64,000 nt of DNA from Candidatus Woesearchaeota archaeon. GTDB taxonomy: Archaea > Nanobdellota > Nanobdellia > Pacearchaeales > GW2011-AR1. Position 1 is the stretch's first letter; each line of letters starts with the position of its first letter. The DNA lies in contig CAZCCD010000003.1 of NCBI GenBank assembly GCA_964497435.1, forward strand, positions 53,683-117,682. Direction: 5' to 3'. The translations under genes and the position numbers were made by a program. The notes beneath the pieces were generated by a model. That model was not told the origin of the DNA. It did not search any database and saw only the letters and a list, made by a program, of their open reading frames with translations. Shown piece after piece: positions 5,204 to 58,779 of the stretch.

Positions 5204-5971
5204 TTACTTTATTGGAACAACTTTGTTATTAACAATTATCTGTTTTGGAACCTTACCTTTAGATTTTGAAAAATAATTCCATATTAATATAATTGCAAGT
5301 ATTATAATTATTAATCCAAACGACCTTGCTGGTGATTTAATAAAGTTATTTATACCAGAAAGGAAAGCACCTGTTATGCTATCTGTTACACTTGATTCAC
5401 ATTCCTTAAATGTTGCTGGTTTCAATGTTTCTGTCCCGCAGGCATTTTGATCTTCACAAGTTCTTGTCCCGCATTGGCCTTCTACATTACTCCATTTACT
5501 ACATGACCAGCTTTCTACACATGCTGTTGAGATTCCAGGCTCGTTATTTGAAGATATTGTGATGACAGAACCTCCACCGCCATTGCCACCATTTCCATTA
5601 CCTCCACCTCCACCGCCATTACCCCCATTGCCACCATTTCCATTAGGAGGCAATTCTCCACAACTTCTTGTGTTGAATGGTGGATCACAGTTTTTAGGCC
5701 TCAAATTTTCAGTATCGCATAAAGGATTTGTTTGGATGCAGATAAATGTCTTTTGATTATTCTCCTCACATGTCGTTTCATCCCAGAAACTTGAACTCCA
5801 ATCTTCTTGGCATCCTGCAAAAACTCCTCCGCCAGTGCTTACTTTTAAAAATCCATGCTCTGTTTCAGCGATTGAAAATCCAAATCCTCCAATAGCTAAC
5901 GCTAAAATAAACATCACAATTGCAAATTTTTTTTGTTTCATTTCCATCAGAACGTATTTAATTTTACTCAC
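5204..5971 (-). CDS. Cys-rich secreted, membrane-anchored protein with Gly/Asn-rich linker
   Basis: N-terminal signal/TM, many Cys, an NGNGGNGGNGGGGGGNGNGG linker, C-terminal TM helix. Its start overlaps the stop of the giant gene by 8 nt. Confidence 0.6.
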   Translation of the reverse strand: MSKIKYVLMEMKQKKFAIVMFILALAIGGFGFSIAETEHGFLKVSTGGGVFAGCQEDWSSSFWDETTCEENNQKTFICIQTNPLCDTENLRPKNCDPPFNTRSCGELPPNGNGGNGGNGGGGGGNGNGGNGGGGSVITISSNNEPGISTACVESWSCSKWSNVEGQCGTRTCEDQNACGTETLKPATFKECESSVTDSITGAFLSGINNFIKSPARSFGLIIIILAIILIWNYFSKSKGKVPKQIIVNNKVVPIK

Positions 5972-8900
5972 AATCTAAATCTTCAATATCTATATCTCCA
6001 TCACAATCATTATCTATTGAATCATCACAAACTTCAGTTTCAGGTACACACTCTGGCTCAGGCTCTTCACATATGTTTGTCAAAGATTCAATCCAGTATT
6101 CTAGCTCATGAACCCCAGGTCCTATCGCACTCATGTCTTCTGAATCAAGCTCAAGGTGCAATTCAAATTCTGTCCTGCCATTTATCTCACTGCATTGTAA
6201 CTGAAGGAATTCAGCATCTGTTATAAACCAGCATAATCCTGTTTCAGGGTCCCAGAAATCACCAACTTCTCCACATTCTTGTTCTGTTAAGCCAGATTCA
6301 TGCCTTAATCCAACTGTGGCACTCTCTCCTGTTTCAGGATTTGTTATTATAGCATTCATATCCCCAGGAGTCACAAGGCCTTCTATCTTATTTAGCCAGA
6401 ACTTAATGCTGTTGTCTCCCCTCATGCAAATATTGTAAGTAAAGTCACAAATACCGCCTTCTTCAGGGTCAATTCCGCATATTGCAGGGGTTATAAATTC
6501 AACAAAAATACCATCTAAAAGAGTTTCTTCAACTTCTTTACAATTTTCATTTCCATTACCATCTTCTGCACAGACCTTAAGAATATAATCTCCAGCAGGA
6601 AGTTCTTTGTTCATTATACCTTCCCATGTTACTGTCTGTCCATAATGCACAATATTTAAGTCAATTTCTCTAAGTGGTTCGTCTCCTTCATCTACAGGAG
6701 TTGCCCATAATTCAGCCCATGCTCTTATTACGCCTGATTTTTCATCATCTATTGAAGCAACTATTTTCTGGACACACATTTCTATTTCTCTTTCGTTTGA
6801 ATTAGGATTCCTTATTATTATTTCAGGACCTGCAGAGTCAACATTATCCCATTCAATGTTTGCTTCTCCAACATTTCCTAGGGCATCTCTGCAGAACCAT
6901 TCAATATTATGTAGTGAATCTTCCTGGAAGTTAAATCCATAACCATCTTCTTCTGTTAAAGAACAACAGAAAGGAACCCAATCTTGTGATTCTTCACTAT
7001 ACAATTCTTCAATTTCTCCTCCAAATTGTTTGCAATATTGCTCTGTTAAGAATGGAGGAGTTTCTTGATTATCGTCATCCCATGATATTCTATAACAAAG
7101 AGATTCATGGTCAACAGGATGTGGTTCTCCATCTTTACAGCTTAAAGTTATTGGTGTTTCACCTGTGACAAACCATGCAGGCCATTCTCCTTGAGGTCCG
7201 CATAATTCTTCATCACCTACACAAGGATATTTTGGCTCTCCAACTTCTTTATCTGTTAAAGGAGCTGTATTATCAACAAACACACACTGTTTATTCACTC
7301 TTTCTGTTTTTTCAACATTATCAACACTGTAGTATTCAATTAGGTGGCATGATTCCTCGGTTTTATAGAATGGAATGCCATGATAAGTGTTCCATTCACC
7401 TCGTCCAACAGCTTGCTGGCAAACATCTTGATTCAAACAGTTCTCATCATCAACAAGAGTATTTCTCCAGAAAGTTTCACTTATTCCAGAAGGATGAGGT
7501 GCCTGATCTCCACCATCAAGGTAAACAGCTGTTTCAGAGCTTATCCATGCAGGGAACCATTCTTCTTTTTCTTCATCAAACTCACACATTTCTTTTAAGC
7601 ATAATTCAAGTGCTTCACCATCTTCTCCAGCTTCATATCTGCACCAATCCTGACAAGTAAAGTAAGGACCATCAAATGACTTTGTTGTAACTGGTGGTGT
7701 TTTATCAACAATAAATGTTTCTTCATCAACTACTCTATTTCCTAGAGCATCTTCACACTCTATTACTAGATTATGGCTTGATTCTTCTGGGAATTGAACT
7801 ATAAACTCACTTCCAAGTTCATCATCGCCAGGTATAACATTTCCACCATTAACAGTGTAACTCCATTCACAAGTCACATCATTTACAGGATGAGGTTGAG
7901 GATCTTCAACACTAACATGAATTTCAGTAACACCATCAATATAACATACATCTTGGCTACCCGGTTTTGGAGGGCATTGTCCGTAACTAGGGCCCACAAT
8001 TTCTTTAGTTATTTTAGGAGGCACTGAATCAACAATATCAATTTCTCTATGTGGTTCTTCAGCTGTTCCATCTGAATTTCCAAGAGCATCAACACAATAC
8101 CATTCTAAAACATGTCTTGAATCTTCTTCTTTGTAAATTGTAACTTCTCCATCTTCTTCAACCCAATATTCAGGAGGCCGGCTTCCCTCTAAATAATCTC
8201 TCCAGTAAAGAGTCACATCATCTATTGGATGTGGTTCTTGATCAGCACAAGATAGAGTTATTGGAGTTTGTTGAGTTATGAACCAATCACACTGTCCATC
8301 TTGAGGTTCTGGTGGTTGACCGCCAATTCCACATGTACCTTCTTCAATTTCATAAGCTTTTAAATGATTATTCTCGAACATTCTTACCCAGATAGCACTC
8401 ACTGGGAAAGTAGCATCATCACACTCTAAATCTTCAGGCCTGTCTCCTGGTGCAGAAAATTCTCCGAGATTTGTCTTTGAGTCTTTGTCAAATCTAAATA
8501 TTTTATCCCCACCATTATTTGCTAAATATAAATCTTCTCCTCCAACAGCAATACCGCTATTCCCAAAAGGAATTCCTGGGGCAAAGCTATCAACAACTGA
8601 ACCAGTTAAATTTAATTCATAAACAGTTGGTCCAACATCACGACTAAACCATATTCTATCATCGCTGTCAGAATTTGGATCGTTTTCGTCATATGCTAAA
8701 CCATCACAAAAATGGAAATGATCTCCTGGAAGTGTTTCTATTAGTGTTACATCACCATTTAATTCTAATTTATATAACTTATTTGGAACACCATTTGAAC
8801 AAGCCCATATTACATTTCTCTTTGCATCATAACCCATTGCACCTAAATTTATTGCCGGACTTGTAGCCAACTCTCCTATTTCTGAGCCATCGTCTGGATT

Positions 8901-10544
8901 AATTAATTTTATAACTGTTGTTTCATCAGGAACATACAAAACTGTGCCATCAAAAGCTACTCCGACATTACTGAAAGCACCAACATCATCTGACATTGTT
9001 ATATCTCTAAGAAGATCTCCAGGTGAATTATGCTCTTCGTTATTTCCATTTTCTCCGTTAATATTATCTCCTCCATTTCCATTTTCCTCACAAGCAACTT
9101 TTGGCTCTCCAACTTCTTTCTTTGTGATTGGTGGCAAAGCATCAACAATATCTAATTCAAAGTGATGCCTTTCTTCATTAGTACAACCATCACTTGCCCA
9201 GTATTCAATCAAATGGCAGGAATCATCTATTAAATTCAAGTGAACATCTTCATTAGGCAATCCTTGCCCAGAATCTTTAAGAGTCCATACAGGTTCTCTT
9301 ACAGTGCAATCTTCACTAAACCATATTCTCCAATTTATTACAGGATTGTCAGAGATTTCATGGTCAGGAGTGTCGGGGTCTTCGGCAGAAAGCCAGATTT
9401 CTGTTCCAGGCTTAACATAATAGCAACCATCTGTTAAAGCATTGCCATTTGCTGTTGTATAATCACAATTAAAAGAAACCTCGTCTGCAAAATCAATTTT
9501 CTTTTCTGTTACTGGAGGAACAGTATCTTTTATGAAAGAAACAATAGGATTGAATGTGAATTTACCCCAGTTTTCTTGTCCGTCTTTTCCATGTAACTGG
9601 ACATAATGTGTTCCCTCACTTAAATCATCTAAATCAATAGTAGCTTCAACATCTTCACATCTTTCATTGAATGAGCCATCAGAAGCAGTCATTGGAATTC
9701 CCCGCCAATTTATTGGATTATCTTCATCAATAAAATATTCAGCAGCTTGTATTCTTGACTCATCATCACAGACATTTCCAGATACAATAGGATCATCACC
9801 ACAAACTAAAAGTTCTTCTGGGTTACATTCATCATTTAACTTAATTCCATTTTCATGTTGCAAATTATCTCCTTCTTCACATGTTGGGTAAAAAGGAGGC
9901 AGGCAGTCAACATCTATTCTTATTGTTTCACAATCTCCCCAATTTCCAGCAACATCTTGTCCTCTAACATGTACATTAATGCTTCCGTCTTGTGTACCCA
10001 CTCCGCTTTTTGTTACAGCTTCAACCAATGAATTATAAAGCCCGTCTGTTGCATTAAGTGGATTTCCACTCCCTTCTGCTCCGCAAGTTGCTCCTCCAAG
10101 GAAATATTCAGCTTCTGCAATTGCAGAACACTGATCAGTCTCTAAGGCATCTATTTTTATCTTGCAGGCATCAACAACTTTTACAGCAGTTAAATCAGAA
10201 GTAACAGGGCCAGTTTCGTCAGGAAACTCATTAAAAACACAACCCTGTTGAACATCACAAGAAAAATCTCCACACTGATCTCCAGGTTCACAAAGAGAAT
10301 CATCAGGAGTATAAACACATCCTGTTTGTTCGTTACAAGAATCAACTGTACAAGAAACACCATCGTCACAAACTATAGGAGTATTCACACACCCACCACC
10401 CTCAACACATTCATCTATTGTGCAGGCATTTCCGTCGTCACAGTTCTGTGGAGAACAAGCACTCACAGAAGAACCAAAATTAATTATCCCAATTATAAAT
10501 ATCAGCAAAACTAAAGAAATTTTCACGTCTTTTCTTAAACCCAT
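5964..10544 (-). CDS. Giant secreted Cys-rich surface protein (1526 aa) with CxxxNxCTxDxC repeats, beta-propeller-like region and C-terminal MopE-like CxDxDNDCDG motif
   Basis: Signal peptide MGLRKDVKISLVLLIFIIGIINFGSSVSA; repeats CDDGNACTIDEC, CDDGVSCTVDSC; C-terminus CDDSIDNDCDGDIDIED. Confidence 0.75.
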   Translation of the reverse strand: MGLRKDVKISLVLLIFIIGIINFGSSVSACSPQNCDDGNACTIDECVEGGGCVNTPIVCDDGVSCTVDSCNEQTGCVYTPDDSLCEPGDQCGDFSCDVQQGCVFNEFPDETGPVTSDLTAVKVVDACKIKIDALETDQCSAIAEAEYFLGGATCGAEGSGNPLNATDGLYNSLVEAVTKSGVGTQDGSINVHVRGQDVAGNWGDCETIRIDVDCLPPFYPTCEEGDNLQHENGIKLNDECNPEELLVCGDDPIVSGNVCDDESRIQAAEYFIDEDNPINWRGIPMTASDGSFNERCEDVEATIDLDDLSEGTHYVQLHGKDGQENWGKFTFNPIVSFIKDTVPPVTEKKIDFADEVSFNCDYTTANGNALTDGCYYVKPGTEIWLSAEDPDTPDHEISDNPVINWRIWFSEDCTVREPVWTLKDSGQGLPNEDVHLNLIDDSCHLIEYWASDGCTNEERHHFELDIVDALPPITKKEVGEPKVACEENGNGGDNINGENGNNEEHNSPGDLLRDITMSDDVGAFSNVGVAFDGTVLYVPDETTVIKLINPDDGSEIGELATSPAINLGAMGYDAKRNVIWACSNGVPNKLYKLELNGDVTLIETLPGDHFHFCDGLAYDENDPNSDSDDRIWFSRDVGPTVYELNLTGSVVDSFAPGIPFGNSGIAVGGEDLYLANNGGDKIFRFDKDSKTNLGEFSAPGDRPEDLECDDATFPVSAIWVRMFENNHLKAYEIEEGTCGIGGQPPEPQDGQCDWFITQQTPITLSCADQEPHPIDDVTLYWRDYLEGSRPPEYWVEEDGEVTIYKEEDSRHVLEWYCVDALGNSDGTAEEPHREIDIVDSVPPKITKEIVGPSYGQCPPKPGSQDVCYIDGVTEIHVSVEDPQPHPVNDVTCEWSYTVNGGNVIPGDDELGSEFIVQFPEESSHNLVIECEDALGNRVVDEETFIVDKTPPVTTKSFDGPYFTCQDWCRYEAGEDGEALELCLKEMCEFDEEKEEWFPAWISSETAVYLDGGDQAPHPSGISETFWRNTLVDDENCLNQDVCQQAVGRGEWNTYHGIPFYKTEESCHLIEYYSVDNVEKTERVNKQCVFVDNTAPLTDKEVGEPKYPCVGDEELCGPQGEWPAWFVTGETPITLSCKDGEPHPVDHESLCYRISWDDDNQETPPFLTEQYCKQFGGEIEELYSEESQDWVPFCCSLTEEDGYGFNFQEDSLHNIEWFCRDALGNVGEANIEWDNVDSAGPEIIIRNPNSNEREIEMCVQKIVASIDDEKSGVIRAWAELWATPVDEGDEPLREIDLNIVHYGQTVTWEGIMNKELPAGDYILKVCAEDGNGNENCKEVEETLLDGIFVEFITPAICGIDPEEGGICDFTYNICMRGDNSIKFWLNKIEGLVTPGDMNAIITNPETGESATVGLRHESGLTEQECGEVGDFWDPETGLCWFITDAEFLQLQCSEINGRTEFELHLELDSEDMSAIGPGVHELEYWIESLTNICEEPEPECVPETEVCDDSIDNDCDGDIDIEDLDCE

Positions 10545-14507: not shown

Positions 14508-14762
14508 ATATAATGTGAGGAACCAAGGTTCCCCTTCACAACCCCTCCTTTAAAATAGTAAGAGTATTTTATATTAATTATGGTAGAGGAAAACATTGGT
14601 TTTATGAACTTCATTCCACCGCCACGATATTTAGTCTCACTTCGTTCGATATTGATAAATTGTTAATATATAAAAGCTTAATTATTCTTTGCTTAACTAT
14701 ACTTCTGCTTTACACAGAGAATGCGACTATTCTTGGCTTTATTCTGTAACCTTTTTAATAAG

Positions 14763-15527: not shown

Positions 15528-15633
15528 GCGAGGGTGTCGGAGCGGTCAAACGAGCAGCCCTTAAGTTAATAATCGATATTAGAAGAAAGGCTGTGGCTTA
15601 GTGCCTGCGCAGGTTCGAATCCTGTCCCTCGCA
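15528..15633 (+). tRNA. tRNA-Leu(UAA) with 22-nt intron at 37/38
   Basis: Acceptor GCGAGGG pairs perfectly with CCCTCGC; T-arm GCAGG-TTCGAAT-CCTGT; discriminator A73; anticodon stem CAGCC/GGCTG; loop CUUAAG, then intron 15566-15587 (ttaataatcgatattagaagaa), then A38; long variable arm. Confidence 0.75.
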
Positions 15634-29702: not shown

Positions 29703-30470
29703 TTAAATTAAACTATAATTTCCTTTTCCACTAAATTTTAACAATCCTTTGTCTCTTAATATTTGCAGTTGCTGTCTAATTTTTGCTTTAACATGGCTAT
29801 TCTTTGGATGAAGTTTTGACAATTCAACCTCATGTTTGTAAACATCTTGTAGATTAAATCGTCTCTTGTTTAATGAATGGATAGTATTTAGGATGTCACA
29901 TGTCCAACCCCTATCGTTTAAAGGTAATTTCCTCATAAAATTAATTTGCTTCCATTGCGACAATATTTTTTCTTTTTTAATTATATCTCCCTCTTCTATC
30001 ATGATTATCTTCCCTTCTGGTGGAATTTTGTTAATCAAAATGTTACATCCTACCCATCCAGCTCTTTTAGCGTTTTCTGAAAGAGGCTTCCTTTTCTCAA
30101 TAATTGATTCAGTAAAGAAGAAAAAAGGAATTAAATATAAATTTTTAACTAAATAATCTAAAGTGTACTGTAATAAAAAGAAGTTTGGTCTAAAATTATT
30201 TTTTATAGACTCAATCATTACTTTGTGAGCCCCATCATTTATTTTCTTTCCAAAATTATTTTTTTGGCTTTTTAATTGAAACTTTTCTTCACATCTTGGA
30301 CAGAAAAAATCATCGATAGGGTTGTTATTTGGAAAAGCTAAAATTTTCCTATTTGAACAATTTGGACAAAATATGTTTTTTCCCACCCACTTTTCTGTTA
30401 TAACCCTAACCCTCTGACTATTACTCTTGTACTTTTGAAACACTTCATTTTCAAAAATAGATAAATTCAT
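29703..30470 (-). CDS. DpnI-family methyl-directed (G-m6A-TC) type IIM restriction endonuclease
   Basis: YKSNSQRVRVITEKW, CPNCSN...FFCPRCEEKFQLKSQKNNF, INDGAH, RPNFFLLQYT, RKPLSENAKRAGWVGCNI, RGWTCDILNTI, and C-terminal wH KIRQQLQILRDKGLLKFSGKGNY. These closely parallel S. pneumoniae DpnI as recalled from memory. Confidence 0.7.
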   Translation of the reverse strand: MNLSIFENEVFQKYKSNSQRVRVITEKWVGKNIFCPNCSNRKILAFPNNNPIDDFFCPRCEEKFQLKSQKNNFGKKINDGAHKVMIESIKNNFRPNFFLLQYTLDYLVKNLYLIPFFFFTESIIEKRKPLSENAKRAGWVGCNILINKIPPEGKIIMIEEGDIIKKEKILSQWKQINFMRKLPLNDRGWTCDILNTIHSLNKRRFNLQDVYKHEVELSKLHPKNSHVKAKIRQQLQILRDKGLLKFSGKGNYSLI

Positions 30471-37026: not shown

Positions 37027-37722
37027 TTATATCCATTTCATTAGAATTGCCAAGCCGACCAAAAACAATAGTATACCTGAAATCAAATGCAGCATTCTTA
37101 CATGACTGTCTTTCCAGCCTGTGACTTCATCAACTTTTGCAAAGCCGAAGTAAATTATCAAGGTTATTATCATCATTGGTAAAACAAAAATAATATTATA
37201 ATAAACAAGCCATGGCAATGCTTTTAAGATTCCTAATTCAAATAACAAACCAGAGGCAATTATATAAGGACCCATTGTGCAAGGAAGGAGAAATAATGTT
37301 AGAACAAAACCCAAAACAAAAGCCCCCCATGGTGATGCAATTCTTTCAGTCATTTTTTTTGCCCGCGGTCTTAAAAATAAAGGCATCTCTGTCGCAAAGC
37401 TTCCTTTTTTATAATTAATAGAATCTTTTATATTCAAGGCTCCGAGAATCATCGATATTATCGCCAATCCATTATAGATTATTTTTGAATTCTCTCTTAA
37501 AAATTCTGCGAATATCTTAAAGAACTGCACAATTATAAGGCCATAAAACATGTATCCTAAAAAAACAGCGAGAATGAATGCAGCTCCTGCGTAAAGGACT
37601 TTTTTCCTTTTTCCAGGATTTTTAATTAAGACAGTCATTAAAACCATCGCGAGTATAGCTATCTCGCATGGATTCACAGAGTCAGCAAGTGCTAACGATG
37701 TAATCTTAATGAAGTCTGTCAT
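37027..37722 (-). CDS. ccdA: Cytochrome c-type biogenesis/thiol:disulfide interchange membrane protein CcdA/DsbD family
   Basis: Multi-TM; conserved Cys in TM1 (ADSVNPCEIAIL) and TM4 (LLPCTMGPYI), the two-Cys CcdA signature. Confidence 0.7.
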   Translation of the reverse strand: MTDFIKITSLALADSVNPCEIAILAMVLMTVLIKNPGKRKKVLYAGAAFILAVFLGYMFYGLIIVQFFKIFAEFLRENSKIIYNGLAIISMILGALNIKDSINYKKGSFATEMPLFLRPRAKKMTERIASPWGAFVLGFVLTLFLLPCTMGPYIIASGLLFELGILKALPWLVYYNIIFVLPMMIITLIIYFGFAKVDEVTGWKDSHVRMLHLISGILLFLVGLAILMKWI

Positions 37723-37877
37723 ATTTTACAGAATGAATTATTATTTTTAAATTTAAGTTATTTTTTGTCTCGCTTCGCTCAATTATTTTTTATTGTTAAT
37801 ACAAAAAATCTCTGTTTTATTACTATCTTGTTTTCTCTTTTTAGCATTAACTTATTTTAAGCGAGCTTCCAAATGTG

Positions 37878-37952
37878 GAAGAACCAAGGTTCTTCTAAAC
37901 TCGCAACCTTGTTCGTTGTGAGTTCAGCAATTTGTCTCACAAAATTGCTCGC
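37878..37952 (+). repeat. Structured repeat element copy A (perfect 7/8-bp hairpin plus two imperfect hairpins)
   Basis: GAAGAACCAAGGTTCTTC hairpin, then AAACTCGCAACC..CGTTGTGAGTT and AGCAATTTgtctcacAAAATTGCT. The 56-nt core is about 86% identical to 56447-56515. Confidence 0.6.
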
Positions 37953-38006
37953 ACTACCATTCCTTTTAAATGCAATAGGAAGCAAGCCGGATAACTATAT
38001 TTTATC

Positions 38007-53456: not shown

Positions 53457-55742
53457 TTAAGAAATATTAATTATAATATTATTACTCATGCTAACGAGCA
53501 AATCTGCTTCTTCATTTTTTATTTTGTTTTCTCTTTGTGCGTCAACTTCTTTTATAAATGACTGAAGCTTATTAATCGCATCTTGTCTCTGATTAGAATT
53601 TAATGCGGTCAATGCATCTTTCGCGGCCTGAAGTTTAGTATCTAAACTACTTTCAATACCTTGCTGTAAATTTAATGTTTTAACTTGATTTATTAATTCC
53701 TCTATAGTATCCTTGCAACCATTTGAATTTGCATCAAAGCCGCTCGAATCTTCTAGAGGGCACTGATCGAATTCATCACGAATGCCATCGCCATCTCTGT
53801 CGAGTTGGAGGATTAAGTTTACGGGCCGAATAGGGTCAATTGGTTGGCCTAGAGAGGCAAAACCACTAGCAATAACCTCATCAACAATAATTTCTCCATC
53901 CGAACTAGACATTTGAAATGTTATATTATAAGGACCATCTCCTATACCTATGCCAGTAATATTATAAAATCCCGAGATAATTTCGCCAAGAAGAATTTCT
54001 TGGGGTTCTGTTCCTGGTCCAGAGTAACCTACACTATCGCCTATTTCATTAACACTCGAATTTAAAGTAGGATCAAAGCCTATTCTTCTCCCTAAAGGAT
54101 CTGTAAAAAGAATATTAATTGGGGAGTTACCCTTACCTGTACCTGCCTTACAATCCTCATCTCCTATGAGAGCATAATGTACAGCATCTCTTGTACCATA
54201 AGGTCTGTGTAATCCTGCTTTTTCAGCTAAAGTGTCTATATCTTCACCTGATATACTTTTTTTATTTTTATTACTTGAATTTATGCATGAAGTTACACCA
54301 TTAATAACTTCACAAATTACTATATCCACTGCTTTTCCTACTTCATGTAGAGATGTATTCTCCTTGCACACACCATCTCTAATTCCATGTTTAGCAATTT
54401 CTTCATCTACCTTTTTCTTAAGTTCTTTACATTTTGAATTATTAAAATCAGCATTAAGTAATGAAGTATTCCTTTGTTTTATTTCATAAAAATGCGCTTG
54501 ATAAGCTGTTGGTCTAAACCCGGATGTAACCTGAAAAGTCTGAATACCGGGTAAATTCAATATAAGATTTTCAAAATTATCAACAGAATTGTTAAGAGTC
54601 TGGTTCATATGAGCACGATCCACTATCTTACCATTTGCAGCTTCAAATTGTTGCGCCATGTTAGGAACAGGAGGAGTATAATTAACTTCTAGCTCGCTAA
54701 TTGGGGTAAGATCTTTAATAATATTACCTGACTTATCAACGCATTCAGGTTTGGAGGGGCATGAAAACGTACATCCTATTTTACCATCATCATTCCATCC
54801 ATCAGTGGTATCACAGGTATTATCCTTTCCTGAACCCGATGAGTTTACTATTATAAAATCACCACGTGCATTAAAACATGCCTTATTGTTATTTACTGTA
54901 TTATTATGTGAGTTTCTAAAACCAATACCATGAAGAGTACTATTTTCTACTATATTATTAGTAATAGTATTGAAATTGGAAGAAAAAATAGTGATAAATC
55001 TATTCCCAGCAGGACCTTTCAAAATATTTGATGATAGTATGTTAAAGCTAGAATCAAAAAATATAATAAAATTAAGAGTGTTTGATGAGACAGTGTTAAA
55101 ATATGAATTTCTAAGAGTAATTAATCCTGAACCGAATCCAGTTTGTGTATTAGAAGTTATCACATTGAAGTTGGAGTTAAACAGATGAACATCATTAGAA
55201 TTCGAGGTAATCGTGTTGGTATTAGAAGATATAAGTGAAATTGCACCTATATTTGAAGCTAGTAGGTTAGAGTCTGAATCGACAATACGAATAGAACCAA
55301 GATTATAGAGAAGAGTGTTAGCATTAGCATTAGTTAATTCTATTAGTCCGTATATTGCCCTGCAATTTTTTATTGTGACTCCAAACTTAGAATCCAAAAA
55401 TATACTATTAAGGTCAGCATCATTGCAATCAAAAGTGACGGAGTTTGAGCAGATATCTGCGATAAATCTAATTGGAGAATCAGTTGGGCCATTAAGTACA
55501 TATGAATAAGTAACATCACAACCAGTACCCCTTGCATTTATGCATTCAGGGTCAGTCCACGGGCATTCATCACAGGTATTAGGAATTCCATCAGGACCAT
55601 CACCTGGACCATGATTTGGTGGGCACCCTCCTTGCATGCAACCACGATGAATACAACCTGGATGAGATAGAACTAAATTATCACCAGTAAAAATGATTAT
55701 AAATGTAAAAATTATTATTAGATTTATTTTTTTATTTTTCAA
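53457..55742 (-). CDS. Secreted right-handed parallel beta-helix repeat protein with C-terminal Ca-binding-like Asp-rich motif
   Basis: Signal peptide; tandem ~22-aa repeats (NTITSNSNDVHLFNSNFNVITSN...); DRDGDGIRDEFDQC. Confidence 0.6.
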   Translation of the reverse strand: MKNKKINLIIIFTFIIIFTGDNLVLSHPGCIHRGCMQGGCPPNHGPGDGPDGIPNTCDECPWTDPECINARGTGCDVTYSYVLNGPTDSPIRFIADICSNSVTFDCNDADLNSIFLDSKFGVTIKNCRAIYGLIELTNANANTLLYNLGSIRIVDSDSNLLASNIGAISLISSNTNTITSNSNDVHLFNSNFNVITSNTQTGFGSGLITLRNSYFNTVSSNTLNFIIFFDSSFNILSSNILKGPAGNRFITIFSSNFNTITNNIVENSTLHGIGFRNSHNNTVNNNKACFNARGDFIIVNSSGSGKDNTCDTTDGWNDDGKIGCTFSCPSKPECVDKSGNIIKDLTPISELEVNYTPPVPNMAQQFEAANGKIVDRAHMNQTLNNSVDNFENLILNLPGIQTFQVTSGFRPTAYQAHFYEIKQRNTSLLNADFNNSKCKELKKKVDEEIAKHGIRDGVCKENTSLHEVGKAVDIVICEVINGVTSCINSSNKNKKSISGEDIDTLAEKAGLHRPYGTRDAVHYALIGDEDCKAGTGKGNSPINILFTDPLGRRIGFDPTLNSSVNEIGDSVGYSGPGTEPQEILLGEIISGFYNITGIGIGDGPYNITFQMSSSDGEIIVDEVIASGFASLGQPIDPIRPVNLILQLDRDGDGIRDEFDQCPLEDSSGFDANSNGCKDTIEELINQVKTLNLQQGIESSLDTKLQAAKDALTALNSNQRQDAINKLQSFIKEVDAQRENKIKNEEADLLVSMSNNIIINIS

Positions 55743-56278: not shown

Positions 56279-56382
56279 TTAATTTGTCAAGCACCATAGA
56301 TTTTAGGAGATTTTTCAGTTTAAAAACTATTATGTGATTTGAACCAATAGTTTTTTAAACAAATTTTCTATTTTCATTATAT

Positions 56383-56629
56383 GCCCATATGGTCTAACGG
56401 CTATGACGCTAGCCTGTCGCATGGCGAGGACACCTAACGGTTTCCTTTAACTCGCAACCTCACTCGTTGTGAGTTTAGAAATTTGTCTCGTGAAATTGCT
56501 CGGCTTAACCTTCCCTAAAGGGTTCAACGCGGAATTCATAATGACACTTTTTTCGCTTGACTTCCCTTAAGAAATTATGGGGAGAAATGCAGAACGCTGG
56601 AAACCCGGGTCCGACTCCCGGTGTGGGCG
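56383..56629 (+). tRNA. tRNA-Asp(GUC) interrupted by a ~175-nt intron at 37/38 (exons about 56383-56419 and 56595-56629)
   Basis: Acceptor GCCCATA pairs with TGTGGGC (one G-U); G73; D-arm GUC(U)/(U)GAC with G10; anticodon stem CUAGC/GCUGG (C-G, U-G, A-U, G-C, C-G); loop C-U-GUC-G then intron then C38; T-arm CCGGG-TCCGACT-CCCGG. Asp identity elements G73, G34U35C36, C38 and G10 are all present. A 4-bp GCAU/AUGC helix bridges the two splice junctions (BHB-like). Confidence 0.6.
56447..56515 (+). repeat. Structured repeat element copy B, inside the tRNA-Asp intron
   Basis: TAACTCGCAACCtcactCGTTGTGAGTTtAGAAATTTgtctcgtgAAATTGCTCGG; about 86% identical to 37897-37952. Confidence 0.6.
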
Positions 56630-56664
56630 TAGAATTTATATAATAAGATTTCTAGGAAGGTAGA

Positions 56665-57855: not shown

Positions 57856-58779
57856 TCAAACAATTACTTTATCTTTAAACTTAACTCTTTCCTCTTTATA
57901 AGTAAATGTTTCAACAATTCCACCGTAATTTCTTTCCAAATGAGAAACTGTTTCTTCAGCTAAATGTTCAGGAGTAGAAGCTCCAGAAGTAACTCCCAGA
58001 TTTCTAACTGCTTCTAACCAAACTGGTTTAATATCTCTAAATGTTGAGATTAAATATGCATCGACATTATTTATTGCTGCTGTTTCAACTAACCTTTGTG
58101 AATTAGAGCTGTTCTTACTTCCTATAATTAAAAACAAGTCCACCATTTTCGCCATTGCCATTACAGCTTCCTGCCTGTTTGTCGTGGCATAACAGATATC
58201 ATCTTGAGGCATTACAAAATTAGGAAAATCTGTTTTTAGTGCTTTGACTATTGGTTCAACATCATAAGAAGATAAGGTTGTTTGAGTTATTCCAGCGACT
58301 TTAGCCTCCCTAGGTATTGAAAGCCTCTCGACATCTAGAGGAGTCTGAACTAAATGAATTCCCTGAACCTGCCCCATTGTACCCCTTACTTCTTGATGTC
58401 CCCCATGGCCTATCAAAACTACTTCATACCCTAATCCAAAGTATTTTCTTGCTTTTGTGTGCACTTTACTAACTAAATCGCAAGTAGCATCGTTCACTCT
58501 CATGTTTCTTTTTCTAGCTTCTAGATATACTGATTCAGGGCTCCCATGCGCTGAAAGAACTACTCTAGCTCCATCAGGAACTTTAGAGATATCTTCAACA
58601 AATATGGCATTATAATTTTCTGTTAAATCTCTCACAACGTGTTCATTGTGAACAATTTCATGAATCATGTAAATGGGTTCACCTGGAAAAGCTTCCGCAA
58701 CTCTTTTTACAGTATCTACAGCTACTTCAACTCCAGCACAATAACCTCTGGGCTTTGCAAGAATAATTCTTTCAAGCAT
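57856..58779 (-). CDS. ispH: 4-hydroxy-3-methylbut-2-enyl diphosphate reductase (IspH/LytB)
   Basis: PRGYCAGVEVAV, IYMIHEIVHNEHVV, SAHG, DATC, ITQTTLS, DICYATTNRQEAV, GSKNSSNS, GASTPE; collinear with E. coli IspH. Confidence 0.85.
   Translation of the reverse strand: MLERIILAKPRGYCAGVEVAVDTVKRVAEAFPGEPIYMIHEIVHNEHVVRDLTENYNAIFVEDISKVPDGARVVLSAHGSPESVYLEARKRNMRVNDATCDLVSKVHTKARKYFGLGYEVVLIGHGGHQEVRGTMGQVQGIHLVQTPLDVERLSIPREAKVAGITQTTLSSYDVEPIVKALKTDFPNFVMPQDDICYATTNRQEAVMAMAKMVDLFLIIGSKNSSNSQRLVETAAINNVDAYLISTFRDIKPVWLEAVRNLGVTSGASTPEHLAEETVSHLERNYGGIVETFTYKEERVKFKDKVIV

Follow-up and report, generated by a model that had tools for sequence, protein, structure and literature searches.

The 64,000-nucleotide stretch analysed here (the window), from the Candidatus Woesearchaeota archaeon assembly GCA_964497435.1 (contig CAZCCD010000003.1, positions 53,683 to 117,682), carries two copies of a hairpin-rich repeat, one in the spacer between two protein genes (copy A) and the other inside the intron of a tRNA-Asp gene (copy B). 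These copies probably represent a family of short selfish DNA repeats, non-autonomous and found specifically in Pacearchaeota-like DPANN archaea. Indeed, the family is multi-copy, its members lie in unrelated flanks, one orthologous site lacks the insert, deletion derivatives exist, the inserts found within coding genes have open frames, and a motif of the bulge-helix-bulge (BHB) type surrounds copy B. An earlier examination of the letters alone (hereafter the sequence-only reading) had proposed a mobile, selfish element resembling a MITE (miniature inverted-repeat transposable element), and this part of the proposal is supported by the copies at unrelated loci in relatives and by the insert-free orthologous site at copy A. 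What we describe is a real DPANN repeat family with unusually informative insertion sites, and not a demonstrated new RNA.

The conserved core of the repeat is made of three hairpins, H0, H1 and H2, followed by a CUCGGCUUAACCUUCC tail. R1, a covariance model of this 95-nt core built from members of the family, scores copy A (37874..37968, + strand, 95 nt) at 95.5 bits (E=4e-20) and copy B (56423..56519, + strand) at 100.3 bits (E=3e-21); the next-best match on the + strand of the window has 10 bits. In copy A, all four parts are on the + strand. H0 is GAAGAACCAAGGTTCTTC, that is GAAGAACC AA GGTTCTTC (37878..37895), identified from sequence and fold; H1, recognized by folding, is a 10-bp stem including one G.U pair, AACTCGCAAC/GTTGTGAGTT, with a 7-nt loop (37898..37924); H2, likewise seen in the fold, is AGCAATTT GTCTCACA AAATTGCT (37926..37949). 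The 3' tail (37950..37968) reads CGCACTACCATTCCTTTTA, which alignments show to be a variant of the consensus CGGCTTAACCTTCCTTT, the same variant being present in a short copy at locus L041 of a relative. Over the family, the consensus of H0 is (AU)GCGAGGAcACC-loop-GGUUUCCUUU, that of H1 AACUCGCAACC-nnnn-UCGUUGUGAGUU, that of H2 GCAAUUUUGUCUCGYRAAAUUGC and that of the tail CUCGGCUUAACCUUCCUUU. A pattern made from H1 and another made from H2 plus the tail each match the window (31% G+C) exactly twice, for chance expectations of 0.00 and 0.02. The repeat is thus present twice, as first claimed.

The hairpin GAAGAACCAAGGTTCTTC that the sequence-only reading had placed ahead of copy A is part of the repeat unit, being its H0, and the unit is longer than first described. 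Over the 56-nt core as it was then delimited, copies A and B are about 84% identical when counted from the sequences, slightly less than the 86% originally given, and a repeat comparison within the window aligns 66 nt, 37898-37963 with 56449-56514, at 80% identity. A and B are different variants and, at about 84% identity, not recent duplicates of each other. It had also been stated that the substitutions largely preserve the hairpins. This is true only trivially, since wherever A and B differ within H1 or H2, the change is either located in a loop or confined to one side of the stem, and the two give no evidence of covariation. When the whole family is aligned, six of the eight H0 pairs show changes on both sides and are still paired, and H2 shows one-sided variation only, for instance from U-A to U.G. 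The H1 stem is identical in every copy found, which is uninformative because the search pattern demanded it. The + strand of copy A folds at z = -5.2, compared with z = -3.1 for the opposite strand, and the wobble pairs, counted in an alignment that was itself fitted to the model, also favour the + strand (46 G.U against 9 A.C cells, or 30 against 9 without H1).

An exact scan with the H1 pattern identified two loci in Candidatus Pacearchaeota genomes and 31 metagenome loci, and about two-thirds of the pattern-matched loci are alike far beyond the pattern itself. R1 confirmed 23 matches on the fetched loci, 17 of which are distinct, all on Pacearchaeota-like contigs; the aIF5B encoded in the window shares 70-73% identity with proteins that bear the name Candidatus Pacearchaeota or Nanoarchaeota, which makes its source a DPANN archaeon. 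The inserted units range from about 110 to about 300 nt. Four bases of the H1 loop are variable, and they are common to the copies of one sample and different between samples: CTGC in Ga0209210 (L003, L008, L025), CCTC in Ga0210377 (L006, L029, L033) and TCTC in Ga0209515 (L011 and L015, both on one 436-kb contig). The copies at L006 and L033 have about 300 nt in common, with cores 98% identical and unrelated flanks. Taken together, the loop bases shared within samples and the L006/L033 pair would be evidence of spread within genomes. L006 and L033 had been considered as orthologous loci for a test of purifying selection, an idea that was dropped, since unrelated flanks indicate separate insertions. 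Two scans of a viral contig collection gave no match to the element, extension along the source contig yielded only short Logan contigs from the same strain, and the literature searched contains no description of this repeat family, which is apparently an undescribed dispersed repeat of Pacearchaeota-like DPANN archaea. L004/L014 (2533-2786 and complement) falls outside the family, being a GC-rich, unrelated contig that matches the H1 pattern by chance. It carries a tRNA-Ser(GCT) call with a 161-nt intron, which may be a bacterial tRNA gene containing a group I intron.

Evidence for insertion comes from the site of copy A. At L038 and L041, the orthologues of a thioredoxin-like gene (55% identity) and of an SfLAP membrane-protein gene (65%) are 1 nt apart, with the junction ..TAAAATG... 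The same gene pair is separated by 284 nt in the window (38006 to 37723), with copy A in between, antisense to both genes. The whole insert that contains copy A, 268 nt long (37729..37996), is missing from the same junction at L038 and L041. The comparison relies on gene orthology and on the junction sequences of these two loci; MAFFT misplaced the short sequences. Copy A thus appears to have split a formerly tightly packed two-gene pair. An 8-bp direct repeat, ATATTTTA on the + strand and TAAAATAT in the gene sense, borders the insert. Its right-hand copy in the gene sense (37721..37728) overlaps the SfLAP start codon, its left-hand copy (37997..38004) begins 2 nt past the thioredoxin-like stop codon, and one copy stands at the ancestral TAAAATG position. 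This repeat is suggestive of a target-site duplication; no clear target-site duplication was found at the other copies.

The aIF5B neighbourhoods of relatives were fetched for a synteny comparison, and 221 kb (15 loci, comprising the aIF5B surroundings of eight relatives and the window's own ends) were scanned with R1. There was one weak further match, a mini-copy of 43 nt at L041 (1035-1077, - strand) in which H1 and H2 are missing and only H0 and the tail are left. The variant of the tail that it carries, CGCACUACC, is otherwise found only in copy A. Because this single short match is all that the 221 kb contain, the element is sporadic, of low copy number, and leaves deletion derivatives. 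The mini-copy lies just upstream of a thioredoxin-like gene, and copy A lies downstream of the orthologue of that gene. The use of L038 as a clean insert-free counterpart of the L041 mini-copy was abandoned, the alignment being ambiguous.

Copy B was correctly placed by the sequence-only reading in a tRNA-Asp(GTC) gene (56382..56630, + strand). With introns allowed (option -i), ARAGORN predicts a canonical cloverleaf with exons at 56383-56419 and 56595-56630 and a 175-nt intron (56420-56594) at position 37/38, beside the anticodon. Default ARAGORN and Rfam detected no RNA gene in the window, and this tRNA was missed. A scan of the intron for BHB motifs sets the splice sites after 56419 and 56594, on a 4-bp central helix CUGU/GCAG (4/4 pairs) with two 3-nt bulges, a 5-bp exon helix and an inner helix of only 2 bp; this is a relaxed motif, and chance alone produces comparably scoring motifs in this region, as is frequent with the scoring used. 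The core of copy B begins 4 nt past the 5' splice site. The rest of the intron (56520..56594, + strand), with a TTCGCTTG motif at 56552-56559, is homologous to the post-core sequence of L008 and of the inserts at L013 and L016. A second intron of this type is that of the tRNA-Gly(GCC) gene at L010/L030, which is 111 nt long and almost entirely composed of the element, in the sense orientation. In both tRNA introns the core begins 1-4 nt past the 5' splice site, and the last nucleotides of the intron pair with the anticodon loop of its own tRNA (GCAG/CUGU in tRNA-Asp, GCAA/UUGC in tRNA-Gly). Three free-standing copies are located 39-61 nt from a tRNA gene (L001, L015, L018). To call the repeat an intron-borne module is correct for copy B, yet other copies lie outside introns. 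The window also contains a tRNA-Leu(TAA) gene (15528-15633, + strand) with a 22-nt intron, again missed by default tRNA detection and by Rfam, so that both tRNA genes of the window (2/2, tRNA-Asp and tRNA-Leu) are interrupted.

Intergenic copies occur in either orientation. At L020 and L029 a copy fills the spacer between co-directional genes, and at L003 (5503) and L025 (1916) the start codon of a divergently oriented gene lies directly against the element's 5' end; this gene encodes thioredoxin in the former and ribosomal protein L37Ae in the latter. Read on the gene strand, the element at these last two loci ends in ..AGTTAAAGGAAACCGNAGGTGTCCTCGC-ATG, with a TTAAAG box about 24 nt and AGGTG 7-8 nt upstream of the ATG. 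To judge from these motifs, it may supply outward promoter or ribosome-binding signals there.

Two copies, both of a 5'-truncated subfamily, are inside open reading frames (ORFs), antisense relative to the tRNA-intron orientation. MnmA at L013/L019 is enlarged by 65 residues (134-198), at a place occupied by 7 residues in solved MnmA structures, and its Pfam HUP domain is split in two. The Bud32 kinase at L016 is longer by 62 residues (125-186), which stand between DLTTSNMIL and IFFIDFGLG. Both inserts encode EPIS..EASNFA(K/R)QNCKTHNE(R/Q)GCELGNKF, which corresponds to the reverse complement of H2, H1 and the junction, and both fall where solved homologues have short connecting segments. In each coding insert, the frame used is the only one of the six without a stop codon, and shuffled inserts are open in 0.25% and 0.5% of cases. 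A motif scan of the inserts found no in-frame BHB that would restore a normal MnmA or Bud32, and translation of the inserts would be the simplest reading. In the main subfamily, the interval from H1 to H2 is shorter by one T and the junction is TTTAA, which creates a stop codon in the coding frame; this would explain why only the 5'-truncated subfamily is seen inside genes. In-frame insertions of this kind are found in genes of relatives, and the window has no such copy.

Several copies are accompanied by an accessory module. Upstream of the core of copy A, it is found at 37760..37811 (+ strand), with a GTCTCGCTTCGCTC motif, and is repeated at 14627-14678. It resembles the sequence that follows the core in L013 and L016 and the sequence that precedes it in L006 and L033. 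A post-core stretch with a (C/T)TCGCT motif is present in the MnmA and Bud32 inserts, in the tRNA-Asp intron and in L008. The motif (C/T)TCGCT(TCGCTC) stands beside the core at 37767-37783, 14634-14650 and 56552-56559 of the window and in L006, L013, L016 and L033, and CTCGC/GCGAG words also occur within H1, past H2 and at the element's 5' end.

A third copy of the element, in a decayed state, is probably located at 14513..14680 (+ strand), although the evidence is weak. An H0-like hairpin (14516-14541) adjoins the start codon of a nuclease gene that runs divergently, and the module with the GTCTCACTTCGTTC motif (14627-14678) follows about 110 nt further on; H1 and H2 are unrecognisable, and R1 gives only 8.9 bits for 14513-14618. 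A recurrence of the H0 core at 14520 had been pointed out before. The word GAACCAAGGTTC does recur at 14520-14531, a match that is marginal alone, 3 of 100 shuffles giving at least two matches. The alignment of 14627-14678 with 37760-37811, however, scores 50, for a shuffle maximum of 45; since this similarity makes a decayed copy likely, the GAACCAAGGTTC match is likely to be meaningful.

The repeat had not been matched to any known family, and the Rfam search leads to the same conclusion. At the gathering threshold, Rfam gave no match besides tRNAs in the window or in 16 loci, and at E<=10 nothing overlaps either core beyond an edge match to COG2908 (14.2 bits, E=0.75, 56404-56432) that includes the first 10 nt of copy B. 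Some classes of RNA were considered and rejected. A box C/D or H/ACA guide RNA does not fit, since regular-expression searches show that the C box (RUGAUGA) and the D box (CUGA) are absent from both window copies and that ACA is confined to loops. RNase P RNA was suggested by the likeness of CGGCUUA in the tail to conserved region V and of GAGGA to region I; it was discarded on the grounds that no P4 pairing is possible and that the element is about 100 nt long and multi-copy. The reverse-complemented tail resembles GGAAGUUAAGCC of 5S rRNA, for which Rfam gave no match on either strand, and this candidate was rejected as well.

These sites can be read as meaning that the element would land at new places and persist only where the host is unharmed; each surviving copy would then mark a site at which the host can neutralise it. 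In tRNA genes, the loop of a BHB intron would tolerate the element, and the splicing endonuclease and ligase would remove it together with the intron, as in the case of copy B, which would have entered a pre-existing short intron. The free loop of such an intron would start a few nucleotides after the 5' splice site, and the fact that both cores start so close to that site, in introns whose ends pair with their own anticodon loop, could be explained by the BHB loop being the only part free for insertion. In intergenic spacers, as for copy A, slack would be sufficient to tolerate the element. In the coding genes of relatives, only the single stop-free orientation and frame would be kept, and the insert would be read through as a peptide of about 60 residues. 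Movement might require an enzyme supplied in trans that recognizes the strand-asymmetric hairpins and the CTCGC/GCGAG motifs, a suggestion that we make very tentatively.

A number of observations weigh against a selfish repeat of this kind. The element has no terminal inverted repeats: its first 40 nt compared with the reverse-complemented last 40 nt align no better than shuffles (p = 0.37 for the copy A insert and 0.90 for the copy B intron). Neither a transposase, an integrase nor any other mobilising gene is found among the 29 window ORFs compared with Pfam. The copy number appears to be low, 2-3 per genome fragment, and a peptide-profile search of 5.8 billion proteins yielded no candidate for further inserts in coding genes. 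The direct repeat ATATTTTA, the one possible target-site duplication, is composed of A and T only, occurs 14 times on the + strand of the window and lies in an AT-rich spacer, so that it is no more than suggestive. Core and accessory module do not stand in the same order in all copies, the module preceding the core in copy A, L006 and L033 and following it in the others that have one. Five of about 15 loci are inside a tRNA gene or at most 61 nt away from one, which points to a link to tRNA genes beyond mere tolerance. Finally, the compensatory changes in H0 and the excess of G.U pairs on the + strand would also fit a functional + strand RNA. The link to tRNA genes and the wobble bias would fit equally the handling of the element as single-stranded DNA on one strand, or an enzyme that targets tRNA genes.

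We see a modest chance that the element is more than tolerated DNA and has, as a strand-specific structured nucleic acid, its own role, either as a new small RNA of Pacearchaeota that is released from tRNA introns and from stand-alone genes or as a mobile module directed at tRNA genes, where it would give rise to BHB introns or lengthen them. That it should be a functional small non-coding RNA of about 100 nt, with three or four tandem hairpins, either expressed from dedicated genes or cut out of tRNA introns, the coding copies being accidental, is rather doubtful. The stronger folding of the + strand, the paired double changes in H0 and the predominance of G.U over A.C argue in its favour, as do the position of the core just past the 5' splice site of both tRNA introns, the clustering of copies with tRNA genes, and the T-run that ends several free-standing copies after CCTTCC and could be an archaeal terminator. 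Archaeal tRNA-Trp introns yield C/D box guide RNAs. However, two copies are antisense inside ORFs, those at L020 and L029 are in tight co-directional spacers that leave no room for a promoter, the site of copy A is insert-free in two relatives, and an RNA that the cell requires would hardly be expected to have no full copy in the 221 kb scanned from relatives. The element has no Rfam family and no C/D boxes, the invariance of H1 is due to the search, and the pair counts come from a model-fitted alignment. With copies antisense in the protein genes of two relatives and no RNA product demonstrated besides the intron, the structured or regulatory RNA that the sequence-only reading also envisaged has not been shown.

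It is improbable that the element is in essence a mobile BHB-type tRNA intron, passing from one tRNA gene to another at the level of RNA or through recombination, as has reportedly been proposed for introns of Thermoproteales, with the other copies as escapees. The tRNA-Asp and tRNA-Gly introns are indeed homologous from their first nucleotides to a similar 3' end (GGAGAAA..GCARAAC), and in each the four nucleotides pairing with the anticodon loop are fitted to the tRNA in question. Related ideas have been published (PMC4090602; PMC3293823). About 13 of the 17 copies, though, are outside tRNA genes and bear no tRNA-exon remnants, and the coding copies are antisense, open-framed and devoid of a usable BHB. 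Besides, a BHB needs exon nucleotides, so that no intron is able to bring its splice signal along when it moves, while the free loop of a pre-existing short intron suffices to explain why the element starts beside the 5' splice site. Chance resemblance, or the remains of a single local segmental duplication, can be given hardly any credence. The 64-kb window has only two clear copies, and a local alignment seemed to reach into the tRNA 5' exon; on the other side stand the 0.00-0.02 matches expected by chance, the 17 distinct copies known elsewhere and the lack of significance of the exon extension in any copy (p = 0.93). For the same reason, a decayed tRNA pseudogene was dismissed; the free-standing copies have no tRNA-exon remnants.

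The selfish repeat proposed here finds its closest counterparts, as regards behaviour, in the Rickettsia palindromic elements (RPEs) and in MITEs, the RPEs appearing to be the best match. RPEs insert in-frame into many housekeeping genes (PMC10969869). Both RPEs and the present element are short (about 100-150 bp), hairpin-rich, non-coding repeats of intergenic DNA, both are found in-frame in unrelated housekeeping genes (here MnmA and Bud32), where one open frame adds a peptide, and both inhabit small, reduced genomes. RPEs are bacterial, and the comparison concerns behaviour only, sequence homology across domains not being expected. The element differs from them in its apparently much lower copy number and in its distribution, with 2 of 17 copies in coding genes and two in tRNA introns, a niche that bacteria do not offer. 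To our knowledge, no transposase is known either for RPEs or for this element. With MITEs such as the Sulfolobus SM elements, Correia and ERIC (enterobacterial repetitive intergenic consensus), it has in common small size, multiple dispersed copies, the absence of coding capacity and of autonomy, presence or absence at an orthologous site, what may be a target-site duplication (at copy A), derivatives with internal deletions and in-frame fusions in some cases. Unlike them, it lacks the terminal inverted repeats that define the class, the 29 window ORFs include no parent insertion sequence, and its conserved part consists of internal hairpins and not of the ends.

Palindromes of the repetitive extragenic palindrome (REP) and bacterial interspersed mosaic element (BIME) type, and those of the IS200/IS605 type (Y1, RAYT), resemble the element in having imperfect, strand-asymmetric hairpins without terminal inverted repeats, and subfamily 2 of the element has a hairpin about 15 nt from one end. 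However, no TnpA, RAYT or TnpB was seen among the window ORFs scanned, elements of the IS200/IS605 family insert without a target-site duplication, of which copy A may show an instance, and REPs are 20-40 nt long and far more numerous. Transposed tRNA introns in Thermoproteales and an intron gain linked to a mobile element in Caldiarchaeum are reported in two archaeal studies (PMC4090602; PMC3293823). As in those cases, related introns occupy position 37/38 of different tRNAs, and a mobile element is tied to intron gain or growth; the difference is that our element is also present outside tRNA genes, including in coding genes, with no recombinase-bearing element nearby. The box C/D RNA of the pre-tRNA-Trp intron offers a further parallel, that of a long archaeal tRNA intron with a conserved structured module that also has free-standing copies. 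The present element, however, has neither C/D boxes nor a variable guide region, and its sequence is nearly constant.

The genomes of DPANN archaea are among the smallest and most tightly packed of cellular genomes, and we know of scarcely any description of dispersed repeat families in them. If the element is a selfish repeat, the tRNA intron, the spacer and the in-frame MnmA and Bud32 insertions would be three ways in which a compact genome absorbs selfish DNA, and the RPE phenomenon would be extended to archaea. The element also bears on the origin of long archaeal tRNA introns, since the 175-nt and 111-nt introns consist almost wholly of a repeat found elsewhere; should it prove to be a module that creates or enlarges BHB introns, it would provide a live example of tRNA intron gain in archaea. 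Such introns hide tRNA genes from default finders, and the coding inserts lengthen proteins in a way that annotators could mistake for new domains.

Some other features of the window and of its relatives deserve mention. The IspH/LytB gene (57856-58779, - strand) belongs to the bacterial-type isoprenoid pathway; apart from the identical source protein, its best homologues are only 51-58% identical, and those that are named are bacterial, which suggests horizontal acquisition. It was given up as a synteny marker, being bacterial-like with a next-best homologue only 58% identical. This very small genome also encodes a DpnI-like methyl-directed restriction endonuclease (29703-30470, - strand; Pfam DpnI and DpnI_C, E=1e-70). 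Two large ORFs are of the secreted or surface type, one of 1526 aa (5964-10544, - strand) with the internal DNA repeats D1, D15 and D16, and a NosD-like one of 761 aa (53457-55742, - strand). Inteins are found in DNA gyrase genes of two relatives (L043, 21300-21734, and L048, 16996-20610; Pfam Intein_splicing, GyrB and GyrA) and represent another class of selfish insert in these genomes.

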